DNA of 64,000 bases from Candidatus Pacearchaeota archaeon (GTDB lineage: Archaea > Nanobdellota > Nanobdellia > Pacearchaeales > GW2011-AR1), in the NCBI GenBank assembly GCA_018304105.1, contig JAGVWX010000018.1:13336-77335 (forward strand). Reading direction: 5' to 3'. Numbering within the stretch: position 1 is the stretch's first letter; each line of letters starts with the position of its first letter. Below, piece after piece: positions 18,674 to 64,000 of this stretch. The translations under genes were made by a program, and so were the position numbers. Below the pieces are notes generated by a model. It saw nothing but the letters and a program-made list of their open reading frames with translations, had not been told where the DNA came from and searched no databases.

Positions 18674-18978
18674 TATCTTACTTCCTCAAAGACTAGTTTA
18701 GGTTCTGCTACTTCAGCTATGGTCTTGGTTGCCGCGTCTCTTGCAGCATCGGTTCCGAAAACTTCAAGTTGATAATCTGCTCTTGAACCATAATGATTTA
18801 ATGTGGTATCTTGAAAATGAAAAACGCGGCTAGACTCACTTCTTATAGAGTTATAGGCGTCTGTTACAGCCACAATATTTGCTACGGTTAAAAGGCGCGA
18901 ACCTAATTTATCGTTAAGCTTTTGTCTTTCTTGGTCTGAGGCTGCTTGAATTCTGTATTTTGCTACTTGTTGTGCCAT
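18673..18978 (-). CDS. Orphan 101-aa protein wedged between eL39 and eL31
   Basis: Fills the gap exactly: its stop shares a base with the eL31 start, and it starts 1 nt after the eL39 stop. No recognisable motif. Confidence 0.5.
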   Translation of the reverse strand: MAQQVAKYRIQAASDQERQKLNDKLGSRLLTVANIVAVTDAYNSIRSESSRVFHFQDTTLNHYGSRADYQLEVFGTDAARDAATKTIAEVAEPKLVFEEVR

Positions 18979-40039: not shown

Positions 40040-40300
40040 CTATCTGGAAGAAGCCATTTGTTCTGAACGCTTAACTGAAACTTTAACATTTGGAACCCGA
40101 ACTTCTTCAACACGCAGTTCGTTATGAGCATAGGCATCAAGAAGGTATGTTCGTTGAATGGAAGGTTTTCTTGCTCTTACGTCCTGAACATATTCTAATA
40201 ATGCGCTTTCTTCATCTATTCCTATGGTGTGTTCACAACTTCCACCATGAACAACCATTCGCACGTTATATAATTTTAATTCTTCACCCACAGTAATCAT
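40040..40300 (-). CDS. Orphan 86-aa protein between eno and rps2
   Basis: ORF only. Confidence 0.4.
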   Translation of the reverse strand: MITVGEELKLYNVRMVVHGGSCEHTIGIDEESALLEYVQDVRARKPSIQRTYLLDAYAHNELRVEEVRVPNVKVSVKRSEQMASSR

Positions 40301-43450: not shown

Positions 43451-44189
43451 TTTGATTCTCCTCCAATGAGCCACTGGAATTTTCCACTACGGCTTTCAGG
43501 GCTTTGGTTTGAATTTCACAGATTTCTGAACAAGCTTTGTTAGCCATTTCTAAAAGTTCTTTTACTTTTTCGGGTTGAATTTTTCCGTCCATTTGCATCA
43601 GGGTGAATTCGTCATGGTTTGCTAATTTAGCGATTGCAAAGTCTGTCGCGCCTTCGCCTTCATGGTAGTCTTCTTCTTCTTTTGTCAAGTCAACTATTAA
43701 TGTTTGGTCTGTTTTGCCGAGAGCTACCGAACAGATTAAATCTTTCATTGGAATTCCTGCGTGAGCAAGGGCCATTGAAGCAGCATTTATTCCGGCTGTT
43801 CTTGTTCCAGCATCAGCTTGGAGAATGTAAATCTGGACATCTACGACTGTATTTGGAAAGGCGCTTAGGTCTATTGCAGGAAGCAAAGCCCATTCGGTTA
43901 CTTTTGAAATTTCCTGACTTCTACGAGATGGGCCGGGTTTTTTTCTATCGTAAACCGAGAAGCTTAACAAATCGTAGTTGCATCTTAAGATTCCTGTTGA
44001 TGGGTCCTGCATATGCTGGGGATGGAGTTGCCTTGGACCGTAGACTGCTGCGATTGCGACAGTGTCGCCGAATGAGAACATTGCTGAGCCGTCCGCGTTT
44101 GGAATGACTCCGACTTTCGCGACTATTTTTCTTAACTCATCAACTCTTCTTCCATCAGGCCTTTTGAAATCTGATTTCTTTGACGTCAT
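43443..44189 (-). CDS. rrp41: Exosome subunit Rrp41 (RNase PH)
   Basis: RPDGRRVDELRKI...NADGSAMFSFGDTVAIAAVYGPR...DADGGTRTA-like ADAGTRTAGINA. Confidence 0.85.
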   Translation of the reverse strand: MTSKKSDFKRPDGRRVDELRKIVAKVGVIPNADGSAMFSFGDTVAIAAVYGPRQLHPQHMQDPSTGILRCNYDLLSFSVYDRKKPGPSRRSQEISKVTEWALLPAIDLSAFPNTVVDVQIYILQADAGTRTAGINAASMALAHAGIPMKDLICSVALGKTDQTLIVDLTKEEEDYHEGEGATDFAIAKLANHDEFTLMQMDGKIQPEKVKELLEMANKACSEICEIQTKALKAVVENSSGSLEENQNE

Positions 44190-44482
44190 TATTGCCATCC
44201 TCCGCAATTAATTAATGCATCTTTTAATTCACAATATTTTGGATCTTGAAGCCTAATAGAAATTAAAGATCCTCCACAAATATGAATTCTATCACCAGAT
44301 TCTACTGTTTGATTTATTGATACTGTATTTAACGTAATACCTTCATGTTTTGGAGATGTTCTGTAGGCGTAGGTTGATTTCCCCCCTATTTCTGCATCAG
44401 AATTTCCAACCCACAAGCCAACCCTATCAACTAATTGTTCTCCTTCTTCAAATAAGCGTAGGTTAACTTTTCTATCTATCAT
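44189..44482 (-). CDS. Orphan 97-aa protein wedged between rrp4 and rrp41
   Basis: 4-nt overlap with the rrp4 stop, and its stop abuts the rrp41 start. No motif recognised. Confidence 0.5.
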   Translation of the reverse strand: MIDRKVNLRLFEEGEQLVDRVGLWVGNSDAEIGGKSTYAYRTSPKHEGITLNTVSINQTVESGDRIHICGGSLISIRLQDPKYCELKDALINCGGWQ

Positions 44483-51626: not shown

Positions 51627-51809
51627 TTAATTTTCCTCCTCGGCTGTTCTTTTTGCCAGAACGTTTTCTGCTTCGCGCTCTTCAATTTCATCGTCTGGGA
51701 CCTTGATAAAACTGTCGACTGCTTCGCATTCAGAACATTCTGCTGGAGGGTATGCACCGTACTCGATGTTTCCGCATTCGCATTCCCAGACAATTCCTTT
51801 TCCAGCCAT
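51627..51809 (-). CDS. 60-aa Zn-ribbon protein wedged before rpl15
   Basis: WECECGNIEYGAYPPAECSECEA has a CxC...CxxC arrangement; its stop abuts the rpl15 start. Confidence 0.5.
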   Translation of the reverse strand: MAGKGIVWECECGNIEYGAYPPAECSECEAVDSFIKVPDDEIEEREAENVLAKRTAEEEN

Positions 51810-51843
51810 TATTCTGACTCTCCTGATTCTTTTCTTTTGAGTT

Positions 51844-52266
51844 TCATTTTAGGTTTAAAATATATTCTTTTAGCTTAGGATGAAAAGAGGTCGTGAAATA
51901 CTTCTCTATTTCTATTGGATTTACCCACCTTATCTCGACAAATTTCTCTCCTGCCCTTTCCTTACCGCCAATAACCTCGCATAAATAATAAATCGTTAAA
52001 AACTCTCGCTTTTCTGGATAGGTTTTTGCAAAGACAGGCCCAAGACTCTCTACTTTGAGGCCTGTTTTCTTCATTATTTCTCTTTTAAGATAGTCTTCTA
52101 ATTCATCAGTATAGCTAGGCCTTCCTCCTGGAAAACACCATGTTAATTTTTTAATGTAAGTATCATTTTCTCTTCTTCCAATCAAAATCTTTCTTGTTTT
52201 CGTATCGAATACAATTCCTAAAACGTTCACCAGAAAAACTCCCCTGTCAGATTCTTTCCAATTCAT
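51844..52266 (-). CDS. NUDIX hydrolase
   Basis: GGRPSYTDELEDYLKREIMKKTGL approximates the Nudix box Gx5Ex7REUxEExGU. Starts 1 nt after the rpl30 stop. Confidence 0.65.
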   Translation of the reverse strand: MNWKESDRGVFLVNVLGIVFDTKTRKILIGRRENDTYIKKLTWCFPGGRPSYTDELEDYLKREIMKKTGLKVESLGPVFAKTYPEKREFLTIYYLCEVIGGKERAGEKFVEIRWVNPIEIEKYFTTSFHPKLKEYILNLK

Positions 52267-52267
52267 T

Positions 52268-52687
52268 TTATAACATCCTCTCTACTAGCTCATTTATTTT
52301 TTTATTTTCTCCGAGAACGCCTTTGCCTGTTTCTCCAGCGTGCTTCTTTGATTCTATACCTTTTCTAGGAGGATGAAGCCTGAAAAAAGGTTTCAATCCT
52401 AATTCCCCGAGGGATTTCTTTTCTAACTCAGACATGACTTTCTTTGCGTCTATTTTTGCGCCCGCCTTAATTGGCTGTCCTCTTTCGGCTAAAAGTTTGG
52501 CAAGAGTTTCGGTATTGATTTTGCCGTAGGAAACGAAGTTTCTAATCTTCATTAATAACTTAAATGTGTTTTCAGATTCTGGAAGCAAGACTGCTGAATA
52601 TTTTCTATGAGTGTGTATTCTGTTTAAAGTTTCTTTAATATCCCCTGATAAATTCACTTTTCCGGCAATTCTTATTACGACTATCAT
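52268..52687 (-). CDS. rpl30: Ribosomal protein uL30
   Basis: MIVVIRIAGKVNLSGDIKETLNRIHTHRKYSAVLL. Confidence 0.8.
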   Translation of the reverse strand: MIVVIRIAGKVNLSGDIKETLNRIHTHRKYSAVLLPESENTFKLLMKIRNFVSYGKINTETLAKLLAERGQPIKAGAKIDAKKVMSELEKKSLGELGLKPFFRLHPPRKGIESKKHAGETGKGVLGENKKINELVERML

Positions 52688-53478
52688 TGCAACCTCATCT
52701 TTGTTGTTTTTTCTAAAGCGTTAACGCAAGCCTTGGCGACGTTGAAGGTTGTTTTTGTGTGGCCTGTCGCACGAGTGTAAGCGTCTTTTACGCCAGCTAG
52801 ATGAAGAATTTTTTTGACTTCTGAGCCTGCGACGAGACCTGTTCCTCTTGGCGCCGGCCAGAGAACAATCCGAACGCTTCCGCATTTGCCTTCGACCTTG
52901 AATGGAACTGTGTGGGGCTTGGTCTTGTCTTTTTCTTCTTCTGGAGATTCGAAACCCAACATTACCTTCAAAAGATTTAACTTTGCATTCCTTAACGATT
53001 TTTCTCTTGCGGGAAGAGTTTCAGAAGCTTTTCCAAAACCTAAACCTATGTGGCCGTCTTTATCGCCGACGACTGCCATTGCTGAGAAGGACAGAACGTT
53101 TCCTTCTTTTGTTTTCTTTTGAGTCTGTCTCCAAGCTCTTCTTTTACCGCCGCCAAATTTTCCTTTTGCCTGGCCGATAGCTATCAAGTCGGATTCTAAA
53201 GGCAAGAGCTTGTCAACTATTTCAGATTCAAGAATCTTTTTTCCAGACTTGAGTATTTTGTCTATGTCTTTTTCCTTTCCCTCTTTGACCAGTTTTCCAA
53301 GCCTTGTTTTTGGAGCCCAGGAAGCAACGGCGTCTTGAGATCTGTCTTGGCGATCCAATCTTTTAATTTCCTCCGTTACTTCTTTTTCTGCGACTACTTC
53401 TATCTCAATCTTTTCTAATTCTTCTGGAACTGCTTCAATGAGATCCTTCGGTTCGTTTTTTGTTTCTTTTTCTGCCAT
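52684..53478 (-). CDS. rps5: Ribosomal protein uS5 with an acidic N-terminal extension
   Basis: WAPKTRLGKLVKEGK...VVGDKDGHIGLGFGKASETLPAREKSLRNAKLNL... Confidence 0.85.
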   Translation of the reverse strand: MAEKETKNEPKDLIEAVPEELEKIEIEVVAEKEVTEEIKRLDRQDRSQDAVASWAPKTRLGKLVKEGKEKDIDKILKSGKKILESEIVDKLLPLESDLIAIGQAKGKFGGGKRRAWRQTQKKTKEGNVLSFSAMAVVGDKDGHIGLGFGKASETLPAREKSLRNAKLNLLKVMLGFESPEEEKDKTKPHTVPFKVEGKCGSVRIVLWPAPRGTGLVAGSEVKKILHLAGVKDAYTRATGHTKTTFNVAKACVNALEKTTKMRLQ

Positions 53479-53955
53479 TTACAAAGCTCCTTTTACCTTT
53501 TCGAAAGTTGATTTAAGTTTTTCGTTTCGGGTTATCATTTTTATGTCTGGAAGCGCTTCAGGATTATGTGAAACTTTCAGGCCTGCGTCGACAGCGCCTT
53601 TCAGGACGGCATAAAGTCTTGAGCCATGAACATTTCTCTGCAAACCAATATCTAAGATAACTTCTCCGATTTTGGTCTTCAGGCTTTTTACCAATAGAAA
53701 TCCTGTAAGGTAAGCTGCTGGAAGAGACTTTAAAGAGCCTTGCTTTTCTTTTGGCCAGCCTTTTGATAAAAGGTTTTTCGAACTTGTTTCAGCGATTACT
53801 TTATCCTGTGCTATGTCCGAATCTATAATTTGAACTAAAATATACCTGTTTGTTTTTCTAACTACAAGTCTTGGTTTTTCTGATTTAAGGAGACTGAATC
53901 TAGCCTTATAATCAGTTTTTCTTTCTCGTCTTCTTCGCCTTAGTGTTTTTGGCAT
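53479..53955 (-). CDS. rpl18: Ribosomal protein uL18
   Basis: RRRRRERKTDYKARFSLLKSEKPRLVVRKTNRYILVQII. Confidence 0.85.
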   Translation of the reverse strand: MPKTLRRRRRERKTDYKARFSLLKSEKPRLVVRKTNRYILVQIIDSDIAQDKVIAETSSKNLLSKGWPKEKQGSLKSLPAAYLTGFLLVKSLKTKIGEVILDIGLQRNVHGSRLYAVLKGAVDAGLKVSHNPEALPDIKMITRNEKLKSTFEKVKGAL

Positions 53956-54382
53956 TTTTTACTCCCTTGATTTTGAGCGTTCCGAATTGCAAGATTCTTT
54001 CTTTCATATGAGCTAAACTTCTGAACATGCTTGCCCGAATTTCTTTCCTAAGCGTTAAATAGTTTTCCTTTGGAATTTGTTTGGTCTTTTTTAGATACGC
54101 CAGATAAGACCTGAGCTTTCGGGTTATTATGACGTATTTTCTTTTTCCGCCTCTGACTTTCTTTCTAAAACTACCGAATCTCTTTCTTGTTTTTCTTTTC
54201 TTCTGAGTTTTTCTTCCCCGTATTTCTTTTATGTGAATTGCTCCGGCTTCTTTCAAATCGCGTATGTCCTGCTTTGTGATTGCTTCTTTCAGTTCGCTAA
54301 GACGAGCTGTGTTAAAGATGATTCTATTCTTGCCGACTTTTAACGCGCGAGCAACGAGGTTTCTTTTAGTTTCTAGTTTCAT
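53912..54382 (-). CDS. rpl19e: Ribosomal protein eL19
   Basis: KRNLVARALKVGKNRIIFNTARLSELKEAITKQDIRDL... Confidence 0.8.
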   Translation of the reverse strand: MKLETKRNLVARALKVGKNRIIFNTARLSELKEAITKQDIRDLKEAGAIHIKEIRGRKTQKKRKTRKRFGSFRKKVRGGKRKYVIITRKLRSYLAYLKKTKQIPKENYLTLRKEIRASMFRSLAHMKERILQFGTLKIKGVKNAKNTKAKKTRKKN

Positions 54383-54740
54383 TTTTATCTCCCTGAACAT
54401 TTCGAACATTTAGTATCTTTATCTTTTTTTCTTCTGCGAATTTGATTATTTCCAATTTCTTTTTTGCTCCGACTTTTGCTAAAATGGCAACGTTATCGCT
54501 TCCAAGTTTTCCTAAATCTTTGATGTTGTAAACCAATACTGGAATCTGGCCATTTATTCTTCCGTGTTCCTTTCTTGGCGAGCTGTATCCAACTGAAACT
54601 GTAGCAGGATAACTCTTTCTCTTTAGCCTCATTTTGTTGTCTCTTCCCTTTGGCCTTTTCCATCTTTGAAGCTTCTTTCTGTTCTTTCCGAGCTTGGAAA
54701 ATCTCTTCATGTTTCTTCTGACGAAAGTTTTATTTGACAT
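54366..54740 (-). CDS. rpl32e: Ribosomal protein eL32
   Basis: FVRRNMKRFSKLGKNRKKLQRWKRPKGRDNKMRLKRK...VGYSSPRKEHG. Confidence 0.8.
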   Translation of the reverse strand: MSNKTFVRRNMKRFSKLGKNRKKLQRWKRPKGRDNKMRLKRKSYPATVSVGYSSPRKEHGRINGQIPVLVYNIKDLGKLGSDNVAILAKVGAKKKLEIIKFAEEKKIKILNVRNVQGDKNETRN

Positions 54741-55293
54741 TAGGACGAACCTCCCCAACTCTGGCCGGCTTTTCAGTTATGTAAATACCGTCCTGGAAAA
54801 TTCTTCGGTCTCTGCCACGAAGTTTTGTTGCCTTTTCAAGATTGGCGGCAGTCTGGCCTGCAGCTTCGCGATAATTTGATGAGACTGTGATTTGCGGGCC
54901 ATTTATCTTGACTTCTACTCCTGGAAGAATTTTTGCTTCTCTTGGAACTTTTTCCCCCAAGAAATTATTTATTACAACTTTTCCGGATTCAAGTTTTAGA
55001 GTCATGGGAAAATGAACATTGCAAGACTCAAGCTTGTAGACGAAGACGTTCTGCAGGCCGGCAAATAAGTTTTTTATATGAGCAATCATAGACATAACTT
55101 TCGTGAAGTTTTTTTTGTTTCCTTTCTTGCATTCGAGAATTATCTCGTTGTTGTGAACTTTGATTTCGGTAGATGAAATTAAAATTTTTCTTTCTGATGT
55201 TGTTGAGCCGCCTGTGCATTTCAGAATTCCATGAGAATATTCGCAGGAGATTCCTTCGGGAACCGGAAGTTTTTCTAATATATGATGTTTCAT
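54730..55293 (-). CDS. rpl6: Ribosomal protein uL6
   Basis: Position between uS8 and eL32, with the two-domain uL6 pattern (...FAGLQNVFVYKLESCNVHFPMTL...IFQDGIYITEK). Confidence 0.8.
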   Translation of the reverse strand: MKHHILEKLPVPEGISCEYSHGILKCTGGSTTSERKILISSTEIKVHNNEIILECKKGNKKNFTKVMSMIAHIKNLFAGLQNVFVYKLESCNVHFPMTLKLESGKVVINNFLGEKVPREAKILPGVEVKINGPQITVSSNYREAAGQTAANLEKATKLRGRDRRIFQDGIYITEKPARVGEVRPNVK

Positions 55294-55294
55294 G

Positions 55295-55675
55295 TTAAAA
55301 GAAATAAGCAATTAAGCTTCCTCCGAGATTTTTTTCCAGAGCAGTCTGATGGGTAACGAGGCCTTGCGATGTTGAAATTATTAAGATGCCGAGATTTCTT
55401 GCGGGCAAGTATCTTTTGGTGTATTTTTCTATATCATCTTTCTTTACTATAAATCTTGGCTTTATCGCGTTGCAGCCGTTTAGTTTGCCGAGTTTAATTT
55501 TCAAGAGCTTGGTGTTTGAATCTATATGATATGATTCGACATAACCTTTGAGTTTTGCTATTGCTAGAACGCTCAGAAGGAATTTAGAATGTGTTTTTAC
55601 TGTTAGCTCTGGCTTTCTTGCTCTCAAAGCGTTCATCATCCTATTCAATGTATCAGCGACTGTATCTTGTGACAT
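55295..55675 (-). CDS. rps8: Ribosomal protein uS8
   Basis: DTVADTLNRMMNALRARKPEL...LKGYVESY...ILIISTSQGLVTHQTALEKNLGGSLIAYFF. Confidence 0.85.
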   Translation of the reverse strand: MSQDTVADTLNRMMNALRARKPELTVKTHSKFLLSVLAIAKLKGYVESYHIDSNTKLLKIKLGKLNGCNAIKPRFIVKKDDIEKYTKRYLPARNLGILIISTSQGLVTHQTALEKNLGGSLIAYFF

Positions 55676-55682
55676 TTTTCTC

Positions 55683-55913
55683 CTAACTATATTTCTTGAA
55701 ACCTATTTCTTCTGCGATTTCTCTGAAGCAGTGCCTGCAGATGTGAAGGTTGTATTGGTTTAAGTGTGCCCCGAAACGACCGCAGCGCTCGCACTTTTGT
55801 GCCGCGACGCCCTGCTTTCTGTCTTTTGGCTTGTTGTGTCTCAGGAATTTTTGCATTACTGCGGGCTTGCTTCTTAATTGCTTCGTTATTTTTTTCCAAT
55901 CGCTTGCTGTCAT
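55683..55913 (-). CDS. rps14: Ribosomal protein uS14 (zinc type) with an N-terminal extension
   Basis: KCERCGRFGAHLNQYNLHICRHCFREIAEEIGFKKY. Confidence 0.8.
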   Translation of the reverse strand: MTASDWKKITKQLRSKPAVMQKFLRHNKPKDRKQGVAAQKCERCGRFGAHLNQYNLHICRHCFREIAEEIGFKKYS

Positions 55914-56308
55914 ATTGCTTGTGCTCCGTTAATTCTTGAATGTTCATAAGGCTCTTGAAAAATATTTTTCTTTCTCTCCCTTATTACGAAATGAGCCGCT
56001 ACACCTGGATGCTCTTGCGCGAATTTTTCAAGAGGGCAGGATTCTTCTCTTAATGACGCGCCTGAAATTTCGACTGTATGATTGATATGCACAGCTCTAA
56101 TCTCCGAAGCAGGAACAGTACAGAAATTTATATTTAACGTTCCATCAGCGCCAGATGTTGTTGTATATGCAAATCTACAATTACCTGCAGGAGTAGTTTC
56201 AACATATCTTCCAATGACTACACTCACTCCGTCTCTTGCTAATGAATAATTCACTCCCGATGATAATTTCGGTTGTGCTATTGTTTGTGTTGCTGTTTCA
56301 GTTATCAT
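55910..56308 (-). CDS. Orphan 132-aa protein wedged between rpl5 and rps14
   Basis: 4-nt overlaps at both ends; no motif recognised. Confidence 0.55.
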   Translation of the reverse strand: MITETATQTIAQPKLSSGVNYSLARDGVSVVIGRYVETTPAGNCRFAYTTTSGADGTLNINFCTVPASEIRAVHINHTVEISGASLREESCPLEKFAQEHPGVAAHFVIRERKKNIFQEPYEHSRINGAQAI

Positions 56309-56823
56309 TTTCCGTATATCTCCGTTTTGAAATTTTCTTTCATGAATTCGATGATTTCTGCAGGCTTAACATACTGCCTTTGGGGCATTCTTCCAGCTTT
56401 TATTTTTTTCCTTTTTACTCTGACGCCTGCTCGAATAAAAGAAGCTGTGACATTCAATCCGCGGATTCCGATTTCCCTTTTGTATTCGACTCCGGGAATT
56501 TCAATATATTCGTGAATGCCAAATGAAAATCCGTTCTTTGCTATCTGCCTTTTCTTGATTCTGTTGTCAATTGCACCCAATAATTGATTTAATATTTTAA
56601 TTGCTTCCTGGTTTCTTAATGTGATTGATGTGCCGAGGGGCATGTCTGGCTTGACGTTGAAGTTAGGAATTCTTGTGCTTGGACCGGATTGAGTGATTTG
56701 AGCTTTTCTTCCGGTAAGAAGTTCAAGAAGTTTTCTCGCTTTTTCCAAATCGGGGCCGGTAGCACCACAACTAAGCACGACCTTTTCAAGTTTTATTTTT
56801 CGCATTGGGTTTTTTTCGTTCAT
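56305..56823 (-). CDS. rpl5: Ribosomal protein uL5
   Basis: NPMRKIKLEKVVLSCGATG...FSFGIHEYIEIPGVEYKREIGIRGLNV. Confidence 0.85.
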   Translation of the reverse strand: MNEKNPMRKIKLEKVVLSCGATGPDLEKARKLLELLTGRKAQITQSGPSTRIPNFNVKPDMPLGTSITLRNQEAIKILNQLLGAIDNRIKKRQIAKNGFSFGIHEYIEIPGVEYKREIGIRGLNVTASFIRAGVRVKRKKIKAGRMPQRQYVKPAEIIEFMKENFKTEIYGK

Positions 56824-57056
56824 CTTCTGTTGTCTCCTTCATAAATGACTGGTTGTGATTCGGAATAATTAGACGTTGGCCGATAAAATGCTGTCTGAGT
56901 AGTTGGCGGAAGAGTTTGCTTATGGGCTTCAGAATGATTAAGTGCTATCGGAATAATTATTGACATAGCTGCTCCGGCAATTACTACTCCTGCTAAAACA
57001 TCTAAGGTGGACTGGTGGTCTCTTGCTTTTTTGATTAGAGTATTGAATGTGTTCAT
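56820..57056 (-). CDS. Orphan 78-aa single-TM protein wedged between rps4e and rpl5
   Basis: TM helix LDVLAGVVIAGAAMSIIIPIAL; 4-nt overlaps at both ends. Confidence 0.5.
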   Translation of the reverse strand: MNTFNTLIKKARDHQSTLDVLAGVVIAGAAMSIIIPIALNHSEAHKQTLPPTTQTAFYRPTSNYSESQPVIYEGDNRR

Positions 57057-57679
57057 AATACAATTACCCCGTTTTTCTCGAGTTTAACTTCTACATTTTT
57101 TTCTTTAACTTTGACTGTGACTTTGCCTTCTTCGATGTTTTCAATTTTGCCTTTGTGGCCAAGCAACTTTCCCTTTGTAATTATGCAGTCTTTTCCGTGG
57201 CTGAACTCGACATGCTTCTTGATTTTGCCTTCCGTGTCGAGATAAATCGTGTCATAGGTTTTGATTTTGCTGTCGCTTGAAAGAATGTTTGAACCATCGT
57301 GAAAATTAATCTGGATTTTTTTGCCGTCAAGAATTTTTTTGCCAATCACTTTGCAGGGCCTTTCCTTCTGCTTGGTTTCTTCAAGGACAAATTTTCCTTG
57401 AGGGGTTAAAGAAAGAATGTAAGTTTTGTCTGCTTCAAAAAGATTAAACATTCTGATAGAATCCCTGTAATCCTTGACTTCTTTGCCGTTGATTTTTAAG
57501 GATTTTTGCTTTATCATGTGCTTGACTTCTTTTGCAGTCTTTGCAAGCTTGAGCATATCTCTCACGGCAATGACAACTGGAACAGAATTCTCCAAGTCCA
57601 TGAGCGACCTGGCTACATATTGCGTGCCCTTTCTTGGAACTGGAATTTTTTTATTTACCTGTGCTCTTGTCTGATGCAT
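57053..57679 (-). CDS. rps4e: Ribosomal protein eS4
   Basis: Position, plus the S4-like/KOW architecture (VVIAVRDMLKLAKTAKEVKHMIKQKSLKINGKEVKDYRDSI...). Confidence 0.8.
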   Translation of the reverse strand: MHQTRAQVNKKIPVPRKGTQYVARSLMDLENSVPVVIAVRDMLKLAKTAKEVKHMIKQKSLKINGKEVKDYRDSIRMFNLFEADKTYILSLTPQGKFVLEETKQKERPCKVIGKKILDGKKIQINFHDGSNILSSDSKIKTYDTIYLDTEGKIKKHVEFSHGKDCIITKGKLLGHKGKIENIEEGKVTVKVKEKNVEVKLEKNGVIVL

Positions 57680-58100
57680 TTTTTTTATCTCCCGAATTAG
57701 ATTTTGAATCTGTGCTTGTTTTTCCGCGCCCTAATGCTTCAATTCTTTTTTTGTCGTCCAAGGCTAAGACTTGAATCTGGAGCGCGCTTGGGTGGAACCA
57801 GACGTTTACTTTTGTTCCGTCTTTCTTTGCTCTTTGAATGCTTTCTAAAGCGAGGCGGGTTCTTTTCAAATCGACAACTGAGACTTTTGCTTTTTTCTTT
57901 CTGAACGAACCGCGCATGACAAGCGCTTCGTCGCCTTTCCTTATCGGAAGACTTCTCTTGCCATACTTCTTACGCAATTCTTTTGAAAGATTCGCGCTTA
58001 AAAATTTATGTTTAAGATGAAGCGGCGCGTTTGCCGAAAACTTTCTTTGCTTTCGAGGCTGGCTCGAGGATTGCCAAGCGGTTGAGAATGTGGATTTCAT
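57651..58100 (-). CDS. rpl24: Ribosomal protein uL24 with a C-terminal extension
   Basis: SQPRKQRKFSANAPLHLKHKFLSANLSKELRKKYGKRSLPIRKGDEALVMRGSFRKKKAKV; start taken at MKSTF (58100). Confidence 0.8.
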   Translation of the reverse strand: MKSTFSTAWQSSSQPRKQRKFSANAPLHLKHKFLSANLSKELRKKYGKRSLPIRKGDEALVMRGSFRKKKAKVSVVDLKRTRLALESIQRAKKDGTKVNVWFHPSALQIQVLALDDKKRIEALGRGKTSTDSKSNSGDKKNASDKSTGK

Positions 58101-58101
58101 G

Positions 58102-58380
58102 TTAATTGCTAGGATAAGTAGCCCTCCGGTTTGTTTCATCGACAAGTTGATTAACTCTTGCCAATAATTCTTCATCTCCTTTTACTAATCGGTCTTCGCT
58201 TATTCCTTTATTTTTGAGGGCGCTTCTATGACATCGATATACGGCCATAGTTATTTCCATTTCATCTGGTCTTCTCAAAAGTGCTTGGGCAGCACTTTCA
58301 ATATTCCATTTATAATGTTCTTCTGGCGTCTTGCCTGCAGAAATATCAATTCTGATTTCGGGTGCATTAGTGTTTGCCAT
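58102..58380 (-). CDS. Orphan ~92-aa protein wedged between rpl14 and rpl24
   Basis: The MANTNAPE start is 1 nt after the rpl14 stop, and its stop is 1 nt before the rpl24 start. Confidence 0.5.
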   Translation of the reverse strand: MANTNAPEIRIDISAGKTPEEHYKWNIESAAQALLRRPDEMEITMAVYRCHRSALKNKGISEDRLVKGDEELLARVNQLVDETNRRATYPSN

Positions 58381-58381
58381 G

Positions 58382-58810
58382 TTACAAAACATATTGGGCT
58401 ATCTTAGCCACGGATGGCCAACGCTCCTGAACCTCCCTTGCTACTGGTCCTTTAATCTGAGTGCCTTTTGGATTTCCTTTATCATCTTTCATCAACGCGA
58501 CAGCGTTGTCTTCAAAACAAACTCTTTCTCCTGTGAATCTTCTGTAAGGTTTTTTCTGGCGGATTACAACAGCGTCAAAAACCTGGCCTTTCATGTCTGG
58601 CTTGCCTTTTCTTACTGAGACTTTTACCCAGTCGCCGAGCTTTGCGTATTGCTGTCTTTTCTTTCTAACTTTTCCGTGCTTGACTCCGGTGATTCTTACA
58701 ATCTGAGCTCCAGAGTTGTCGCTGGCTATTACCATGCTTCCGATGTTAAGACCGCGTGTTGCTCTTGCGCTTATTGCTTTTCCCGAGATGATTGATGATT
58801 TGTTTGCCAT
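58382..58810 (-). CDS. rpl14: Ribosomal protein uL14
   Basis: GLNIGSMVIASDNSGAQIVRITGVK...FEDNAVALMKDDKGNPKGTQIKGPVAREV. Confidence 0.88.
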   Translation of the reverse strand: MANKSSIISGKAISARATRGLNIGSMVIASDNSGAQIVRITGVKHGKVRKKRQQYAKLGDWVKVSVRKGKPDMKGQVFDAVVIRQKKPYRRFTGERVCFEDNAVALMKDDKGNPKGTQIKGPVAREVQERWPSVAKIAQYVL

Positions 58811-59037
58811 TATTCATTTCCTCCGCGAGCATTTACAAAAAGTATAGGACAGGTTGAGTATCTTTCTTGTCGTGAACAAATCCTCTCAAATTGGGTCAGA
58901 TTTATCGAGAGTGGACAACTTTCATATGCCTTTGGACAAATATTATTATAACCTATCGGAGTTGTAACTCTATTGAGAGATTCTAACACTTCTTCATCAA
59001 GCAATTCCATGCTGATTCCTTTTGTAAGATTTATCAT
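58810..59037 (-). CDS. Orphan 75-aa Cys-containing protein wedged between rps17 and rpl14
   Basis: 4-nt overlap with rps17 and 1-nt overlap with rpl14. Four Cys (ICPKAYESCP...ICSRQERYSTCP). Confidence 0.5.
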   Translation of the reverse strand: MINLTKGISMELLDEEVLESLNRVTTPIGYNNICPKAYESCPLSINLTQFERICSRQERYSTCPILFVNARGGNE

Positions 59038-59441
59038 TTCAGTTCCTCCAAAATTTCTTTTTCCTTGTCTTTGCTGTTGTTATTTTCTGAGTCTGCGTCG
59101 CGGACTTTTTCAACGACAATGAAGTGAATTAGCTTGCTCAATGGGCGACATTCCTGAACTCTGATTAGGTCTCCCATGTTGATTTGGTCTGCAAATTCGT
59201 CAGGAAGTCTTGCGTGAATTCGTGTTCTTTTTTTCATGAATCTTTCGAACTTTTGGAGCTTGACTGTGCGTTCAAATTCAATTGTTATTCTTTTGTGAAA
59301 TTTTCTTATTACGTTTCCTTGGAAAACTCTTCCTCTTGCAGAAATTCCTAAAGTTCTAACTATTTCTCTGAAGTTGTTTTCTTTTCTGTTCTCTTCGCGG
59401 ACAGCCGCTACTGGCTGTTTCTTTTCTTTCTTCTCTGCCAT
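59034..59441 (-). CDS. rps17: Ribosomal protein uS17
   Basis: RGRVFQGNVIRKFHKRITIEFERTVKLQKFERFMKKRTRIHARLP...GDLIRVQECRPLSK. Confidence 0.85.
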   Translation of the reverse strand: MAEKKEKKQPVAAVREENRKENNFREIVRTLGISARGRVFQGNVIRKFHKRITIEFERTVKLQKFERFMKKRTRIHARLPDEFADQINMGDLIRVQECRPLSKLIHFIVVEKVRDADSENNNSKDKEKEILEELK

Positions 59442-59463
59442 TTTATCTAACCTTGGTTTGAGA

Positions 59464-59760
59464 TTAATCGCTTATGGAATCCTCGGCAAATCCGAGTTTC
59501 ACAAGAATAGGCCTAACCTTTTTCCTGTGGTCTCCTTGAAGTTCTACAACGTTGTCCTTTGCTGTTCCGCCGCAAGCGAGCCCTTCTTTCAGGCTCTTTG
59601 CCACGGACTTGACATCCACGTGCTTGTCAAAACCCTCGACGAGTGTTATTTTTTTCCCGTATCTCCTCGTCTGGGTTGTCACTTTTATCTGCTGTTCGCT
59701 TTTCGCGATTTCTTCAAACACATCGGTTTCACTTGGTAAGCCGAATTCGTTTGAATCCAT
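59464..59760 (-). CDS. Translation initiation factor aIF1 / SUI1
   Basis: KVTTQTRRYGKKITLVEGFD...VKSVAKSLKEGLACGGTAKDNVVELQGDHRKKV. Confidence 0.8.
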   Translation of the reverse strand: MDSNEFGLPSETDVFEEIAKSEQQIKVTTQTRRYGKKITLVEGFDKHVDVKSVAKSLKEGLACGGTAKDNVVELQGDHRKKVRPILVKLGFAEDSISD

Positions 59761-59997
59761 TTATTTCTTCAGCTCCTTTTTTTGGGAGGAACCGAGTTTG
59801 CTTTGTGACTTTGATTGTTTTTGCGAGTTAATCATTGTTAATATCCTTGAAATTGCCCTTTTAAGTTCTTTGGTCTTGGCACGAGGCTTGTTTGCTGTAA
59901 CATTTGCTCTTACTAATTCCATTTTCAAATCCTGCAGCTTGTCTGCCATTTCTTTATCGTTCATTTTTCTGACTTCGGAATTTTTTAAGATGGGCAT
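59761..59997 (-). CDS. rpl29: Ribosomal protein uL29
   Basis: LKNSEVRKMNDKEMADKLQDLKMELVRANV... Confidence 0.8.
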   Translation of the reverse strand: MPILKNSEVRKMNDKEMADKLQDLKMELVRANVTANKPRAKTKELKRAISRILTMINSQKQSKSQSKLGSSQKKELKK

Positions 59998-60743
59998 TAT
60001 TCTTTTTCCTCCATGGTTTTCTCAGTCGATTTTTTTGTTGGCATGGATTTTTTGACTGTTTTCTTTTTGGGCTTGGTCTCTTTTATTTCTTTGATTTCTT
60101 CTTTAACTGTGTCTAGTTCAGCAACAGTCATTTTAATTTTCTGCCTTAGTGTTTCATCGACTTTGATTTGGTCGCTTAGGGCGACTTCTGGGCGGAGGAT
60201 TGCCACTGAAACTCCGACGACACCAGCAATGGTTGTTGCCTGCGACTGAGCTCGGTCTACAAGTTTTGCAGGCTCGCCTGTCTTTTTCAGATAGCCGTGG
60301 CTGAATCGCCAAGTTCTTGCTCTGTCGCTCGGCAGCTTTCCAGCGAGAGTGATTTCAGTGCCTTGAGCGCCAGCCTTGATTATCTGCTGCAACATCTTGT
60401 AGGCGATGACTTTGAATTTCAAAGAACCTTTTCTTTCGAGCATTATCGCGATTTCGTCTGCGACTAACTGCGCGTCAAGAAGCGGCTGCATGATTTCAAC
60501 AATTTCTATGTGGGGATTGTCGAGCTTGAATCTTTTTTTCAAGACTCTTGTCAGTTCATCAATCTTTTCTCCTTTTCTTCCAATCACAAGACCTGGCCTG
60601 GAAGTTGAAACTTTTATTTTTTCTCCGACTGGAGTGTATTCTATTATTACTGCGCTGATTCTTCCTTTGCCGAGGGCGTTCTTTATGTATTCTCTAACTC
60701 TGAATTCATCTTTCTTGAAGCTTACAAATTTTTTCTCTTCCAT
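59997..60743 (-). CDS. rps3: Ribosomal protein uS3 with a Lys-rich C-terminal tail
   Basis: KH domain (VSTSRPGLVIGRKGEKIDELTRVLKKRF) plus the uS3 C-domain. Confidence 0.88.
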   Translation of the reverse strand: MEEKKFVSFKKDEFRVREYIKNALGKGRISAVIIEYTPVGEKIKVSTSRPGLVIGRKGEKIDELTRVLKKRFKLDNPHIEIVEIMQPLLDAQLVADEIAIMLERKGSLKFKVIAYKMLQQIIKAGAQGTEITLAGKLPSDRARTWRFSHGYLKKTGEPAKLVDRAQSQATTIAGVVGVSVAILRPEVALSDQIKVDETLRQKIKMTVAELDTVKEEIKEIKETKPKKKTVKKSMPTKKSTEKTMEEKE

Positions 60744-61378
60744 TATTTCTTGCTCTCCTTATTTGTCTTTTTGTTTATTTCATGAAATTCTTTCGCCTTG
60801 ATTATGATGTTTGTTCTTTTTCCTCGCACGCCGCCACGCCTTTGCGGACGAGTTGCCCAGGACGGAGAAACAAGATAAATTCTTGTTTCGTCTAGTTCCA
60901 TCTGGTTTGTTATAACATTGCCTTTCAGTCCTTTCAATAAATTAATGAAATATTTTGCAGCGTTGACTGGATAACGGCCTCGTTCCATGTTTCCTTTTCT
61001 GTGAGGAATTTCTCCTTTGTATGGAACCGCTTTCTTTAGCTTAATGACCTTTTCTAAATCTGCTATCGCGTCATCAATTTTTTTATTTTTGATGAAACTG
61101 CCGATGTACATTGAATGTTTTTTTGAAATCGGAAGGGAAACCCCCATAGCGATGGCTTCATCTTTCTTTTTCAGCTCTACTTTGACTTTTGGTTTTTCTG
61201 ATTCTTTCTTCTCTTGGGTTTTTTCTTGAGCTTTTTCTTCATCCGGCTCGGTCTCTTGCTTTTCTTTTTTCATTTGCGCTTCTATCTCTCTGGCTTTTTC
61301 CTTGTCCACCGGAAGAGGTTTTGCAACTATCGGTTTCATTTCTTTCTTCTCTTGTTTGATTTTATTTTCTTCTGCCAT
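60743..61378 (-). CDS. rpl22: Ribosomal protein uL22 with a ~75-aa Lys/Glu-rich N-terminal extension
   Basis: ISKKHSMYIGSFIKNKKIDDAIADLEKVI...GRYPVNAAKYFINLLKGLKGN. Confidence 0.85.
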   Translation of the reverse strand: MAEENKIKQEKKEMKPIVAKPLPVDKEKAREIEAQMKKEKQETEPDEEKAQEKTQEKKESEKPKVKVELKKKDEAIAMGVSLPISKKHSMYIGSFIKNKKIDDAIADLEKVIKLKKAVPYKGEIPHRKGNMERGRYPVNAAKYFINLLKGLKGNVITNQMELDETRIYLVSPSWATRPQRRGGVRGKRTNIIIKAKEFHEINKKTNKESKK

Positions 61379-61380
61379 GT

Positions 61381-61791
61381 TTACTTCTTCTGAGTGCGAG
61401 ATGATTTAGTTGCTCCGAGCCCTGCTGCTCCGTGGTTCACTTTTCCTCTGGACATTGCGAACTCGCCGAGCCTGTGGCCTATCATTTCAACAGTGGTTGT
61501 AATTTCCTGGAATGCTTTTCCGTTGTGGATTCCGATAGTCATGCCGACTAACTTTGGAACTATAATAATGTCTCTTAAATGAGTTCTGATTCTTTTGTTT
61601 CTTTCGAGTTTCTTTTCGCAGCGCTTTACAAACTTCTGGATTACGTCAAAGTTTCTTAAGACGGAACGCCTTGAACGGGAAGGCATGAACTTTGCTGATT
61701 CCCTGACGTCGAGTTCTTTAAGCTCTTCAAGAGATTTGCCCCGGTAATTTTGTTCTTTCTTTCTTACCTGTACTTCTTCATGTTCTGCCAT
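61381..61791 (-). CDS. rps19: Ribosomal protein uS19
   Basis: IIVPKLVGMTIGIHNGKAFQEITTTVEMIGHRLGEFAMSR. Confidence 0.88.
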   Translation of the reverse strand: MAEHEEVQVRKKEQNYRGKSLEELKELDVRESAKFMPSRSRRSVLRNFDVIQKFVKRCEKKLERNKRIRTHLRDIIIVPKLVGMTIGIHNGKAFQEITTTVEMIGHRLGEFAMSRGKVNHGAAGLGATKSSRTQKK

Positions 61792-61792
61792 T

Positions 61793-62041
61793 TTAATTAA
61801 GTAACCCTTCCCTTGTGAAAACTGTTCTTGTTGATTGCGGAATAGTGTTTGGCCTTCCGTCCAGAGTTCTGTCGGTTACTAATTTAAATCCTCGTTGTAC
61901 TAAGGCTTTTATTTGGCCTATTAATAATTCAGATTTTCCATATCCCGCCATTAATTTTCCGTCATCGTCTATACAACAGTATCCTATTGAGTCAGTGTCA
62001 AATATTTCTCTAGCAGTTATGTAAATTTGTCTTGGTTCCAT
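61793..62041 (-). CDS. Orphan 82-aa protein wedged between rpl2 and rps19
   Basis: 1-nt gaps at both ends; no motif recognised. Confidence 0.5.
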   Translation of the reverse strand: MEPRQIYITAREIFDTDSIGYCCIDDDGKLMAGYGKSELLIGQIKALVQRGFKLVTDRTLDGRPNTIPQSTRTVFTREGLLN

Positions 62042-62042
62042 T

Positions 62043-62744
62043 TTATCCGTGGTATCCTGTCTGTCGCGGCCTTACGTGCCCGACTCTCTTTCCTGCAGGA
62101 GCGTTTCGTTTAGCAATTTTTTGCTTGATTCTCTTGCCCCTGCCAGAGCCGAATGGATGGTCGACTGCGTTGACTTTGACTGCGGAAGTGCGTGGCCATA
62201 ATTTGTTTTTGGCTTTCATCTTGTAATGCATTTTTCCTGCTGTGACGAAAGGCTTGAGTATTCTTCCGTCGCCTGCGATTCTTCCTATTGTAGCCCTGCA
62301 GTTTTCATTGAGCGTGATTGTTTTTTTATTTGGCATTGTGATTAATATAGAATTGTTTTCAAGTTTCTTTGTGAGAGTTGCGAAAGAGCCCGCTGTCCGA
62401 ATCATTTTTCCACCATCGCCAGGATTTCTTTCAAGATTATATACCTGTGTTCCGAGCGGAATTTTTCCAACCGAAAGAATGTTTCCTTCTTTGGCTTCAC
62501 CATTTAAGAATATCTTCTGGCCAACATACGCTCCATTGAAAGCCGGATTATAAAATGTCTGCTCGTTGATTGAAATTTTTATTAATGGGGCGGAATGAGC
62601 TGCGGAATGAACTAAAGCGATTATTTCTGCCTCGCCTTTTTTGTCTGAAGAAGGATAACCAATTGTTTTATTGTATGCTTGTTTTCTGACTCTGTAAGTT
62701 AAGCTTCCCTTTCCTCTTGCTTGTGAAATTATTCTCTTTCCCAT
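62043..62744 (-). CDS. rpl2: Ribosomal protein uL2
   Basis: GNILSVGKIPLGTQVYNLE...NAVDHPFGSGRGKR... Confidence 0.9.
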   Translation of the reverse strand: MGKRIISQARGKGSLTYRVRKQAYNKTIGYPSSDKKGEAEIIALVHSAAHSAPLIKISINEQTFYNPAFNGAYVGQKIFLNGEAKEGNILSVGKIPLGTQVYNLERNPGDGGKMIRTAGSFATLTKKLENNSILITMPNKKTITLNENCRATIGRIAGDGRILKPFVTAGKMHYKMKAKNKLWPRTSAVKVNAVDHPFGSGRGKRIKQKIAKRNAPAGKRVGHVRPRQTGYHG

Positions 62745-62986
62745 TAAATCATCCCCAACTTAGTTGCGACATCAATCGCGGGGTTCTCCTTTTTGAGTTT
62801 TACGAATGCAACTTTTTTGTTGTTTTGAATTAAAGTTCTGACTTTTTCCACTTTGACTTTGAATATTTTTTCAACTTCTGCCTTTATTGTTCCTTTTCTT
62901 TCTTTCTTTTCGACTTCGAAGATTAATGTGTTTTCGATGTCTATTAGCTTGACTGCTTTTTCTGAAGTTACTGGCTTGAGAATCAT
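62744..62986 (-). CDS. rpl23: Ribosomal protein uL23
   Basis: ILKPVTSEKAVKLIDIENTLIFEVEKKERKGTIKAEVEKIFKVKVEKV. Confidence 0.85.
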   Translation of the reverse strand: MILKPVTSEKAVKLIDIENTLIFEVEKKERKGTIKAEVEKIFKVKVEKVRTLIQNNKKVAFVKLKKENPAIDVATKLGMI

Positions 62987-63783
62987 TTTTTACTCTCCTT
63001 AATTTTATTTTGTTCTTTACCTTCTTTGCTTAATTCATCGAGAGCTTTTTGGGTGTAGATTGTCAGCCTGCCGAGAGGATAAAAGTCTGCTATTGAGATT
63101 TCGCTGACTGGCTTGATATCGAAGCCGGAGAACTTTGCTTTTTCTTCGTTTCCTGTCAGGATTAAAACGCCAGCGTTTGATTTGTATTTTCTTCCTCTCA
63201 TCGAGCCTCTGCCGGCGCGGAGTTCTCTGTTTCTGAAAGCGAGGTTTGAGGTTTCTCCGAAGATATTTTGGATTAATTCCTTGAGAGATTTTGTTTTTTC
63301 TGGAAGTGATTCAATTATGAACGGAACGTGCTCGATTTTATCTAAACTTGAATATCTCTTTATGACTAGTTCTTTGTTTGCTGTTGCGGCTATTGCTGAA
63401 TTTATTGCAATCTGGATTTCTTTCTGGTTTATTTTCTTTTCTTTTCCTATGCCTTTTGGAGGATGAGACTGACGACCGCCTCTTGCTCCCGGAACGTTTG
63501 CGCCAACCCAAAAGAACTGGGTTCCCCGACGCCACATTGTTTTTCTTGGAATTCTTGAAATACCTTTTCCGTAATGTCCTTTCCAATCATGCCTTTGGTG
63601 GGAGATTGTTCCAGAAGCACTTTGCCTAAGGCCTGCGGTAATGAATGGCGAGTAAGGCTGAATGAATTTGTCTGCTTCGTAATATTTCTTGACAATGTCT
63701 TCTCTAACCCTGACTGAGAAAACTTTTGGCAATTCGACTTGAGATTTCTTCTCGCCTTTTGAAGAATAGAGTTGAGCTTTCAT
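62983..63783 (-). CDS. rpl4: Ribosomal protein uL4
   Basis: GKGISRIPRK...VPGARGGRQSHPPKGIGKEKKINQKEIQIAINSAIAAT. Confidence 0.88.
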   Translation of the reverse strand: MKAQLYSSKGEKKSQVELPKVFSVRVREDIVKKYYEADKFIQPYSPFITAGLRQSASGTISHQRHDWKGHYGKGISRIPRKTMWRRGTQFFWVGANVPGARGGRQSHPPKGIGKEKKINQKEIQIAINSAIAATANKELVIKRYSSLDKIEHVPFIIESLPEKTKSLKELIQNIFGETSNLAFRNRELRAGRGSMRGRKYKSNAGVLILTGNEEKAKFSGFDIKPVSEISIADFYPLGRLTIYTQKALDELSKEGKEQNKIKESKK

Positions 63784-64000
63784 AATCCTAACTCCTCAAA
63801 TATTCTATTCACACCATAACCAAAAATCGGTGCGGAGCAATGGCCGCCAGGCATTATACGGCCTTGGAAATTAAATCCTACCTTTTCTGAATCATAAACT
63901 CTTTGCTCGGGAGTTCCAGCAGCATTTCTACGTGCTAAATAGATTTGTCTTTCATCTGGAGAATTACCTACGAAAACCGTAATATCATTATCTGGCGTAA
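63780..64000 (-). CDS. 3' end of an unidentified gene upstream of rpl4 (5'-partial at the window edge); not uL3-like
   Basis: Hand translation gives ...TPDNDITVFVGNSPDERQIYLARRNAAGTPEQRVYDSEKVGFNFQGRIMPGGHCSAPIFGYGVNRIFEELGL*. The stop overlaps the rpl4 ATG (ATGA). Confidence 0.45.
   Translation of the reverse strand, partial: TPDNDITVFVGNSPDERQIYLARRNAAGTPEQRVYDSEKVGFNFQGRIMPGGHCSAPIFGYGVNRIFEELGL

Follow-up and report, generated by a model that had tools for sequence, protein, structure and literature searches.

Introduction

Integron cassettes, including those of the archaeal integrons reported in Nanoarchaeota, are promoterless and mostly orphan units of a single open reading frame (ORF), which are expressed from an upstream promoter and drawn from a diverse pool. 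In T4-like phages, homing endonuclease genes of the free-standing kind and hyperplastic small ORFs stand between conserved genes, often with ATGA overlaps. Here we analysed a 64,000-nucleotide stretch of DNA from a Candidatus Pacearchaeota archaeon (contig JAGVWX010000018.1; hereafter the window), in which small extra genes, most of them orphans, are wedged into the archaeal ribosomal-protein cluster. The nearest described concept is the insertion of ORFans, homolog-poor ORFs, into native operons: according to Price, Arkin and Alm 2006 (PMC1480536), ORFans join native operons and use the native promoter, for example in sdhCDAB-b0725-sucABCD, by a mechanism that these authors call 'unclear'. 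A full-text literature search returned no account of such inserts in ribosomal operons of DPANN archaea, which is not proof that there is none.

The extra genes resemble ORFans in native operons in that they are homolog-poor, lie on the same strand inside a conserved operon and are absent from that position in relatives, and they would likewise be expressed from the operon promoter. What differs is the target, here the most order-conserved operon known, with up to 10 junctions used per genome; the insertion, which on either side is precise down to the stop-start overlap; and the turnover, which is seen between species about 90% identical. Huber et al. 2019 (PMC6728339) and PMC10666635 link distances of -4, -1 and +1 nucleotides (nt) to tight translational coupling in archaea and bacteria; they concern native gene pairs, whereas here both ends of a newly inserted gene reproduce this architecture. 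With integron cassettes the inserts share their nature as promoterless single-ORF orphan units, their gain and loss and their very diverse cargo, but they fill their gaps to within 0-4 nt and are spread over many junctions, not lined up in one array. Since the spacers measure -4 to +1 nt, there is no room for attC; no integrase gene was found in the 20-kb loci, no attI in the locus and no inverted repeats at the insert ends, and integron cassettes were rejected. As in T4-like phages, optional small genes stand between essential ones, are patchy in close relatives and could spread via homologous flanks, but here the genome is cellular. Free-standing homing endonucleases were rejected as well: in Pfam, NCBIfam and PHROGs, no GIY-YIG, HNH, LAGLIDADG or His-Cys box match was obtained for the window orphans or for 150 inserts of relatives.

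We read the orphans at these junctions (orfA to orfE and an ORF between uL3 and uL4), together with a Nudix gene, as fast-turnover, translationally coupled accessory single-gene cassettes and not as ribosome components, and we put the probability of this reading at roughly 60%. In Pacearchaeota, small protein-coding genes from a highly diverse pool, mostly without known relatives, occupy the stop-start junctions of the ribosomal superoperon and of other conserved information-processing operons. The functions of the cassettes are heterogeneous, and the evidence defines a kind of genetic object, not the activity of a protein.

Extra genes at the junctions of the ribosomal-protein cluster

The cluster occupies 49.9-64.0 kb of the window on the minus strand, in the order uL4-uL23-uL2-uS19-uL22-uS3-uL29-SUI1-uS17-uL14-uL24-eS4-uL5-uS14-uS8-uL6-eL32-eL19-uL18-uS5-uL30-uL15-SecY. 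Precomputed Pfam matches on contigs identical to the window, which stem from groundwater assemblies, identify uL3, uL4, uL23, uL2, uS19, uS3, SUI1, uS17, uL14, uL24, eS4, uL5, uS14, uS8, uL6, eL32, eL19, uL18, uS5, uL15 and SecY; uL22, uL29 and uL30, which have no Pfam match on these contigs, were assigned by position and tblastn conservation in relatives. The organism is a Pacearchaeota/Nanoarchaeota (DPANN) archaeon of aquifer groundwater, and its uL14 is 92% identical to that of Pacearchaeota UBA73.

Eight extra minus-strand ORFs lie at seven junctions of the cluster (written upstream|downstream, with the spacing to each neighbour in nt). At the edge of the window, 63780..64000 holds the last 72 codons of a 104-amino-acid (aa) orphan, the uL3|uL4 ORF, whose stop overlaps the uL4 start in ATGA; the full gene (4287-4601 of L161, one of the related contigs, for which we use L numbers) has 4-nt overlaps with both uL3 and uL4. 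Then follow orfA (61793..62041, 82 aa) at uL2|uS19, spaced +1 on both sides; orfB (58810..59037, 75 aa with 4 Cys) at uS17|uL14, spaced -4 and -1; orfC (58102..58380, 92 aa, or 96 aa from an alternative start at 58392) at uL14|uL24, spaced +1 and +1; orfD (56820..57056, 78 aa with one hydrophobic helix) at eS4|uL5, spaced -4 and -4; and orfE (55910..56308, 132 aa) at uL5|uS14, spaced -4 and -4. The uL30|uL15 junction holds two genes, a Nudix gene (51844..52266, 140 aa) at +1 from uL30 and a Zn-ribbon gene (51627..51809, 60 aa) at +34 from the Nudix gene and 0 from uL15.

An earlier note on this DNA, made from its letters and translated ORFs, had listed these ORFs; all of them exist, on the minus strand, at the coordinates that it gave, but it had assigned them to six positions, one too few. 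It had correctly seen that the ORF end upstream of uL4 is not uL3; the complete gene proved to lie between uL3 and uL4. The near-exact filling of the gaps that it described is borne out, with boundaries of -4, -1, 0 or +1 nt and the 34-nt spacer between Nudix and Zn-ribbon genes as the sole exception, and so is the single hydrophobic helix of orfD (Kyte-Doolittle 19-residue maximum 2.45). The orphans are, as it had said of several, not Lys-rich in the way of ribosomal proteins: they are near neutral, with a net charge of -2 to +1 and about 1-5% Lys, and their GC content at third codon positions (GC3) of 0.22-0.28 also differs from the 0.28-0.55 (median ~0.38) of the ribosomal-protein genes. 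The Nudix gene, the one extra gene for which it had recognised a motif, is the only one with a curated family match in Pfam or NCBIfam (PF00293, 48.1 bits against a cut-off of 21.1). The uL3|uL4 ORF has no Pfam match at E<0.01, and orfA and orfD match no Pfam, NCBIfam or PHROGs family and have no relative in 160 related loci; the search that found no relatives of these three ORFs was less thorough than that for the others. OrfA is a singleton 90% cluster present on 51 contigs, and its AlphaFold2 (AF2) model from a single sequence (pLDDT 50) is uninformative. An Rfam scan found no non-coding RNA family inside the cluster.

Turnover of the inserts among related clusters

For the survey, 160 related clusters were fetched and the ribosomal genes mapped in each; occupancy was counted in 81 non-redundant near-complete clusters, with the Zn-ribbon site left out. 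At least one junction is occupied in 58 of the 81 clusters, at least three in 33 and at least six in 9, up to a maximum of ten. The junctions most used are uL14|uL24, uL23|uL2, uS17|uL14, uL2|uS19, uL22|uS3, uL4|uL23 and uL5|uS14, and no occupied case of uL29|SUI1 or uS5|uL30 was found in the surveyed relatives. A high count at uS19|uL22 appears, as we read the uL22 sequences, to reflect mostly a variable N-terminal extension of uL22 and not inserts. The inserted ORFs comprise 361 distinct sequences with a median of 106 aa, among them 224 singletons and 39 small families, and only about 8 of 150 relatives' inserts have Pfam matches (DEDDh/RNase_T exonuclease, DUF5680, MazG and a weak YhaV). 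Several families occur at 2-4 different junctions. When the two largest of these families were compared profile against profile, no similarity emerged (probability 0.2%), and a common superfamily of the cassette families was rejected on this negative comparison.

Gain and loss of the cassettes are fast. In species pairs whose ribosomal-gene DNA is 88-90% identical, 3-6 junctions are occupied in one member and empty in the other, and L038 and L130 are 98% identical in uL14, yet one of them carries a 324-nt insert. The nearest long relatives of the window, L171, L174 and L007, are ~74-76% identical to it in nucleotides along the whole cluster, and their alignment to the window breaks exactly at orfA, orfB, orfC, orfD, orfE and the Nudix gene. 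L174 and L007 have the Zn-ribbon gene alone, and L171 has in addition unrelated ORFs at uS17|uL14 and uS8|uL6; in L081, whose uL14 is 94% identical, an unrelated ORF occupies the orfC site. Tabulating homologs across related DPANN clusters, as the earlier note had proposed, gave a patchy distribution of mostly singletons, with orfA to orfE absent from the nearest relatives; the original observation was understated as well as confirmed. Among the 160 clusters, orfA, orfD, orfE and the uL3|uL4 ORF have no homologs. OrfB and orfC have 2-4 distant ones each: weak positional homologs of orfB occur in L003 (E 3e-8) and L017 (E 3e-6), and homologs of orfC, 35-46% identical, sit at the same junction in L039, L052, L112 and L015. 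A search of a 5.8-billion-protein collection with orfC retrieved orfC itself alone.

The Nudix gene behaves as cassette cargo, with a homolog 78% identical at the same junction in L109 and L020 and family members at uL4|uL23 in L010 and L037. Its Nudix box, as read, is G-RPSYT-D-ELEDYLK-RE-I-M-KK-T-G-L, with Lys-Lys where the consensus GX5EX7REUXEEXGU has the catalytic Glu-Glu, and the protein may be inactive or atypical. The Zn-ribbon gene, in contrast to the cassettes, belongs to the cluster by vertical inheritance and is conserved in the lineage: homologs occur at uL30|uL15 in ~30 relatives, the closest ones L171, L174 and L007 included, and of the extra genes it alone keeps its presence and position. 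Its product has a rubredoxin-like CxC...CxxC pattern, a weak NCBIfam rubredoxin-like match and an acidic tail, and no sequence relative of it was found in the PDB.

Some of the surveyed clusters depart from the common layout in other ways. L056 and L060 have a rearranged cluster, in which uS3 and SUI1 follow uS5 instead of uL22 and uL29 has probably moved with them; the 6-kb 'gaps' of these two loci were considered as large inserts with mobility genes and rejected on account of this rearrangement. A conserved gene of ~250 aa lies inside the cluster, at uL24|eS4 in L019 (9343-11242) and L025 (10997-13353), and in L008 (10797-13868). Downstream of it, L019 and L025 carry an ORF judged by eye to resemble a reverse transcriptase, which could belong to a diversity-generating retroelement. 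In L149/L151, L084, L051, L072, L010 and L033, different junction gaps of one genome contain repeated segments of 45-200 nt that are 82-99% identical; they resemble a small repeated mobile element, and none is present in the window.

Coding status of the inserts

Independent records agree on the inserts. L161 and L162 match the window at 100% over 10.8-14 kb, and L163 has 99.8% identity to it; the three are separate assemblies. Identity across all inserts is 99.8-100% for L161, L162, L163, L167 and L169. The chimeric contig that the earlier note had named as a possible undoing of its observation is ruled out by these identical assemblies. The orphan proteins are recorded on 42-52 contigs; the long contigs with exact orphan proteins all represent the same strain (99.6-100% identical) and offer no strain polymorphism for a pN/pS ratio of nonsynonymous to synonymous polymorphism.

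When the bases of each insert were shuffled (20,000 trials), the frame stayed open in 0-0.7%. By host codon usage, the annotated frame outscores the other five in all six cluster orphans, and their GC content by codon position decreases from GC1 through GC2 to GC3, as it does in real genes. Consistently, of 256 gaps of 180-700 nt in the 160 relatives, 192 have a same-strand ORF over at least 70% of the gap and only 33 an opposite-strand ORF of that extent. The ratio of nonsynonymous to synonymous substitution rates (dN/dS) is below 1 in every family pair, which is weak evidence, as dS is saturated and detection favours conserved pairs. The dN/dS check suggested earlier supports coding through these pairs and through the orfE pair described below (0.40), although the genes are absent from close relatives. 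The cassette products are, as far as codon usage and substitution patterns indicate, real proteins under moderate purifying selection.

Junction anatomy and a proposed mode of entry

A cassette starts at, or a few bases from, the upstream stop and ends at, or a few bases from, the downstream start. Among 237 single-ORF inserts, a spacing of -4, -1 or +1 is found in ~80% on the upstream and on the downstream side alike, and the boundary type on both sides of an insert matches the type of the same junction when empty (chi-square p=3e-6). In the window, each cassette has a stretch resembling the Shine-Dalgarno (SD) motif GGAG in its last codons.

Short direct repeats flank the window cassettes. 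OrfA has an 8-nt junction repeat, TAAAATGG, on both sides (right copy 61788..61795, minus strand; left copy 62038-62045), and the empty uL2|uS19 sites of L007 and L001 have one copy of TAAAATGG. At orfB, a 12-nt direct repeat, GGAGGAA(C/A)TGAA, lies at 59038-59049 and 58813-58824, and TAACATG, ATGAAC and ATGA stand at both junctions of orfC, orfD and orfE, respectively. Likewise, the L038 insert has TAAAATGA on both sides, and the empty site of L130 has TAAGATGA once. Compared with a null model in which same-type junctions from different genomes were paired, flanking repeats are longer, with a mean of 6.64 versus 5.75 nt and with repeats of at least 10 nt in 13.8% versus 5.3% (Mann-Whitney p=0.0015). 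The insert ends show no terminal inverted repeats and no attC-sized spacer. Miniature inverted-repeat transposable elements and insertion sequences were rejected, as no terminal inverted repeats were found, nor any second copy of a window insert in the 64-kb window or in related loci.

These features would fit the following model. A cassette without its own promoter would be transcribed with the operon and translated by termination-reinitiation coupling, and it would leave the downstream ribosomal gene coupled. Insertion and precise excision may proceed via short-homology recombination at similar SD-stop-start motifs, cassettes could be exchanged from strain to strain through the conserved flanking genes, and selection would remove inserts that break coupling.

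One record shows orfB next to a different gene. In L175, a 992-nt ENA scaffold from the same sample series, a family-2 glycosyltransferase, represented by its first 98 codons, runs in frame into a complete orfB, which is followed by 14 nt of uL14. Here the match to window positions 58796-59040 is 100%, and the join shares only ~7 nt. The scaffold may stem from a chimeric read or show the orfB cassette in a second genomic setting.

The orfE allele pair

An exhaustive HMMER search of 1.84 billion representatives gave a single full-length relative of orfE, P0003 (48% identity), together with repeated weaker matches to Big_13 immunoglobulin (Ig)-like repeats of giant proteins. P0003 is an orfE allele at the same uL5|uS14 junction, found on two short contigs from other samples (ERZ27254728, ERZ27254845; a sister strain). 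The flanks on these contigs are identical to the window at 161/162 and 116/119 positions, with no amino-acid change and dS values of 0.03 and 0.15. Between them, orfE and P0003 are only 66.8% identical in DNA and 48% in protein (dN 0.36, dS 0.90, dN/dS 0.40), with five indels, every one a multiple of three. The divergence begins 18 nt after the ATG and stops at the ATGA of uS14. At 33% divergence the transition/transversion ratio of the pair is 2.2, whereas the median for insert pairs of the clade at 25-35% is 0.85 and no such pair exceeds 1.37. Mismatches are spread over the whole ORF, as are the indels, and by base they number 36 at A, 34 at G, 32 at T and 24 at C.

Two histories would account for this: an exchange of alleles with almost exact boundaries, or evolution of the cassette at several times the rate of adjoining neutral sites. 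Identities of ~99% in the flanks versus 67% in the cassette, with an unsaturated, transition-rich spectrum, suggest allele exchange or diversification apart from the flanks. Mutagenesis of the kind caused by diversity-generating retroelements was rejected for orfE: there is no adenine bias and no internal or nearby template repeat in the window, and the reverse transcriptase-like gene recognised by eye was seen only at uL24|eS4 in L019 and L025.

The orfE protein is probably a stand-alone Ig-like beta-sandwich domain with a basic, disordered tail. Each Big_13 repeat of P0004 aligns to residues 2-86 of orfE with 33% identity, and the AF2 model, built from the two-sequence alignment, has a seven-strand all-beta core at residues 11-105 (pLDDT 71-85) followed by the basic disordered tail. 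The likeness to the bacterial domain Big_13 (PF19077), known from giant surface proteins, lies in this repeat alignment and the all-beta core; orfE differs in being a single free domain that has a basic tail and no signal peptide, it gets no match at E<1 from the Pfam model itself, and a Foldseek search of its model against the PDB gave no significant neighbour and none with a TM score above 0.3. The profile and structure searches that the earlier note had proposed thus yielded the Nudix family match and the Ig-like lead for orfE, but no PDB fold match for orfE and an uninformative model for orfA.

Weighing the alternatives

Several points weigh against the reading of orfA to orfE, the uL3|uL4 ORF and the Nudix gene as exchangeable accessory cassettes. 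The excess of direct repeats is modest, and part of it may be functional convergence, because a coupled gene cannot do without a stop, a start and an SD motif. No recombinase, nuclease or other mobility gene linked to the cassettes was found, and no donor copy of any window cassette. Expression and translational coupling of the cassettes are inferred from the sequence. Divergence limited to the cassette is seen in one strain-level allele pair, orfE, and does not imply generality. For orfA, orfD and the uL3|uL4 ORF, the evidence of coding is confined to open-frame and codon statistics. The low GC3 of the orphans follows the composition of each host and is by itself no sign of foreign origin.

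A more far-reaching version, which we put forward tentatively and think rather unlikely, is that Pacearchaeota possess an undescribed gene-cassette system targeting coupled stop-start junctions, in which promoterless ORFs would be inserted, excised and swapped base-precisely and alleles exchanged or diversified independently of their flanks. If so, the never-silenced, highest-expressed operons of a minimal cell would act as a display rack for a hypervariable accessory proteome. The turnover itself has wider bearings. The ribosomal superoperon serves as a gene-order and phylogenetic marker set, and here an archaeal lineage has a gain/loss hot spot at its junctions; marker-gene binning, synteny-based annotation and operon prediction should allow for such inserts. 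It bears on how new genes are expressed in streamlined genomes, as borrowed coupling removes the need for a promoter, and on the origin and turnover of the large hypothetical-protein fraction in DPANN archaea. The lineage supplies hundreds of natural pairs of occupied and empty sites for studying gene entry into operons.

The competing explanation that survives best, though we judge it unlikely, is that the inserts are translated spacers without a function of their own. DNA in a coupled operon would survive only as an open frame joining stop to start, and selection would keep the open frame and a non-toxic, foldable product, not an activity. The extreme sequence diversity and turnover agree with this, and so does a GC3 near each genome's mutational baseline and not at the level of highly expressed ribosomal genes. 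Non-genic DNA does enter the junction sites, because plain repeated elements occur in the gaps of L149/L151, L084 and L051, and the dN/dS of the inserts is 0.3-0.8, compared with 0.1-0.3 for enzymes in the same sites. However, the orfE pair keeps its motifs across many synonymous changes, with all indels in frame and a dN/dS of 0.40, and orfE resembles an Ig-like domain with a moderately confident predicted fold. Some cargo is clearly enzymatic by family (Nudix, MazG, DEDDh exonuclease), and families persist across species that differ by 50-65% in protein sequence.

Addiction or defence genes (toxins, antitoxins, immunity or anti-virus genes) under frequency-dependent selection are a distinctly improbable alternative. 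Such selection would explain divergent alleles between nearly identical flanks, as in the orfE pair, and the patchy distribution, one weak YhaV-toxin match and four DEDDh exonucleases among the 150 inserts point the same way; Nudix and MazG cargo is also common in viruses. But the inserts are single genes and not pairs, the window orphans match no toxin, antitoxin or defence model in Pfam, NCBIfam or PHROGs, and PADLOC matched only the DEDDh exonuclease family in the 150 relatives' inserts. A type II toxin-antitoxin module was therefore rejected. A viral origin was rejected too: PHROGs matches no window orphan and, in the relatives' inserts, only exonuclease, polymerase, MazG and one uncharacterised family, and single-orphan scans of IMG/VR viral contigs, which detect close relatives only, found none. 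The suggestion of small selfish or addiction-type genes made in the earlier note comes closest to the evidence in its selfish part, given the patchiness, the singletons, the families found at different junctions and the absence from the nearest relatives; its addiction part fails, as the genes are single and match no toxin or antitoxin family.

Still less probable are lineage-specific ribosome-associated or assembly proteins, co-expressed with ribosomal proteins because they act with them. The inserts are indeed embedded in the ribosomal-protein operon and coupled to its genes, and the Zn-ribbon gene has kept its place in its ~30 relatives. However, orfA to orfE and the uL3|uL4 ORF are missing from the nearest relatives, with unrelated ORFs in their place elsewhere, the orphans are near neutral and low in Lys, the search of solved structures, made with the orfE model only, was negative, and genes of the same class occur in the exosome operon. 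The tail of the Zn-ribbon protein is acidic, and no PDB relative of this protein was found. Because orfA to orfE are absent from close relatives, the ribosome-factor reading, one of those offered earlier, falls for them; for the uL3|uL4 ORF, too, neither presence, position nor sequence is conserved and the protein is not basic, so that this reading is possible only for the Zn-ribbon gene. Absence from close relatives had been named as a sign that the ORFs might not be genes at all; they are coding nonetheless. The other identification considered there, diverged RNase P subunits (Rpp29/Pop4 or others), found no support, as no ORF has a Pfam or NCBIfam match to them at E<1 and none lies at uL29|uS17, where only SUI1 is found.

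An artefact, be it chimeric assembly, miscalled ORFs or extensions of adjoining ribosomal proteins, is scarcely credible: the record is not error-free, as SecY has a 43-nt gap relative to other assemblies, but independent assemblies are identical across every insert, the orphans stand on 42-52 contigs, ribosomal proteins start and end at the same points as their orthologs, and inserts recur in 58 of 81 independent genomes.

Cassettes outside the ribosomal cluster and other features of the window

The cassette class is not confined to the ribosomal genes of the cluster. On the minus strand, a 97-aa orphan (44189..44482, GC3 0.18) separates Rrp4 from Rrp41, both exosome genes, and has ATGA and TAATG at its junctions, and a 101-aa orphan (18673..18978), whose junctions read TAAaATG and TAATG, stands between an eL39-like gene and eL31. 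Less tightly spaced orphans are found at 19700-19933, in YhbY|eS19 before eS19, and at 40040-40300, between enolase and uS2. A further small orphan ORF of low GC3 and low Lys content stands in a conserved operon at 22506-22763.

At the 3' end of the cluster, SecY (49870-51227) is split into two frames joined near 50047, with 43 nt missing in the window. L161 and L162 carry these 43 nt and encode an intact SecY of 466 aa, the deletion ends have no direct repeat, and the gap is probably an assembly or variant artefact of the window record. Beyond the right end of the window, L161 has a restriction-modification cluster directly upstream of uL3 (1-2984), with two N6/N4 methyltransferases and a BsaWI-like endonuclease; the same upstream position in L171 and L172 holds PCNA, a Holliday-junction endonuclease and a weak primase-like match.

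Elsewhere in the window, two adjoining, overlapping ORFs, of 130 aa (45334-45726) and 113 aa (45723-46064), are weakly paralogous (E 5e-4), and both have an N-terminal CxxC...CxxH-type motif and a hydrophobic stretch. The 23S rRNA gene (25525-29337) measures 3.8 kb against a model of 2,987 positions and contains a group I intron at 27012-27386. The 16S gene (36491-37874) lies ~7 kb from it, with protein genes and a low-GC island (30.9-33.4 kb) in between.

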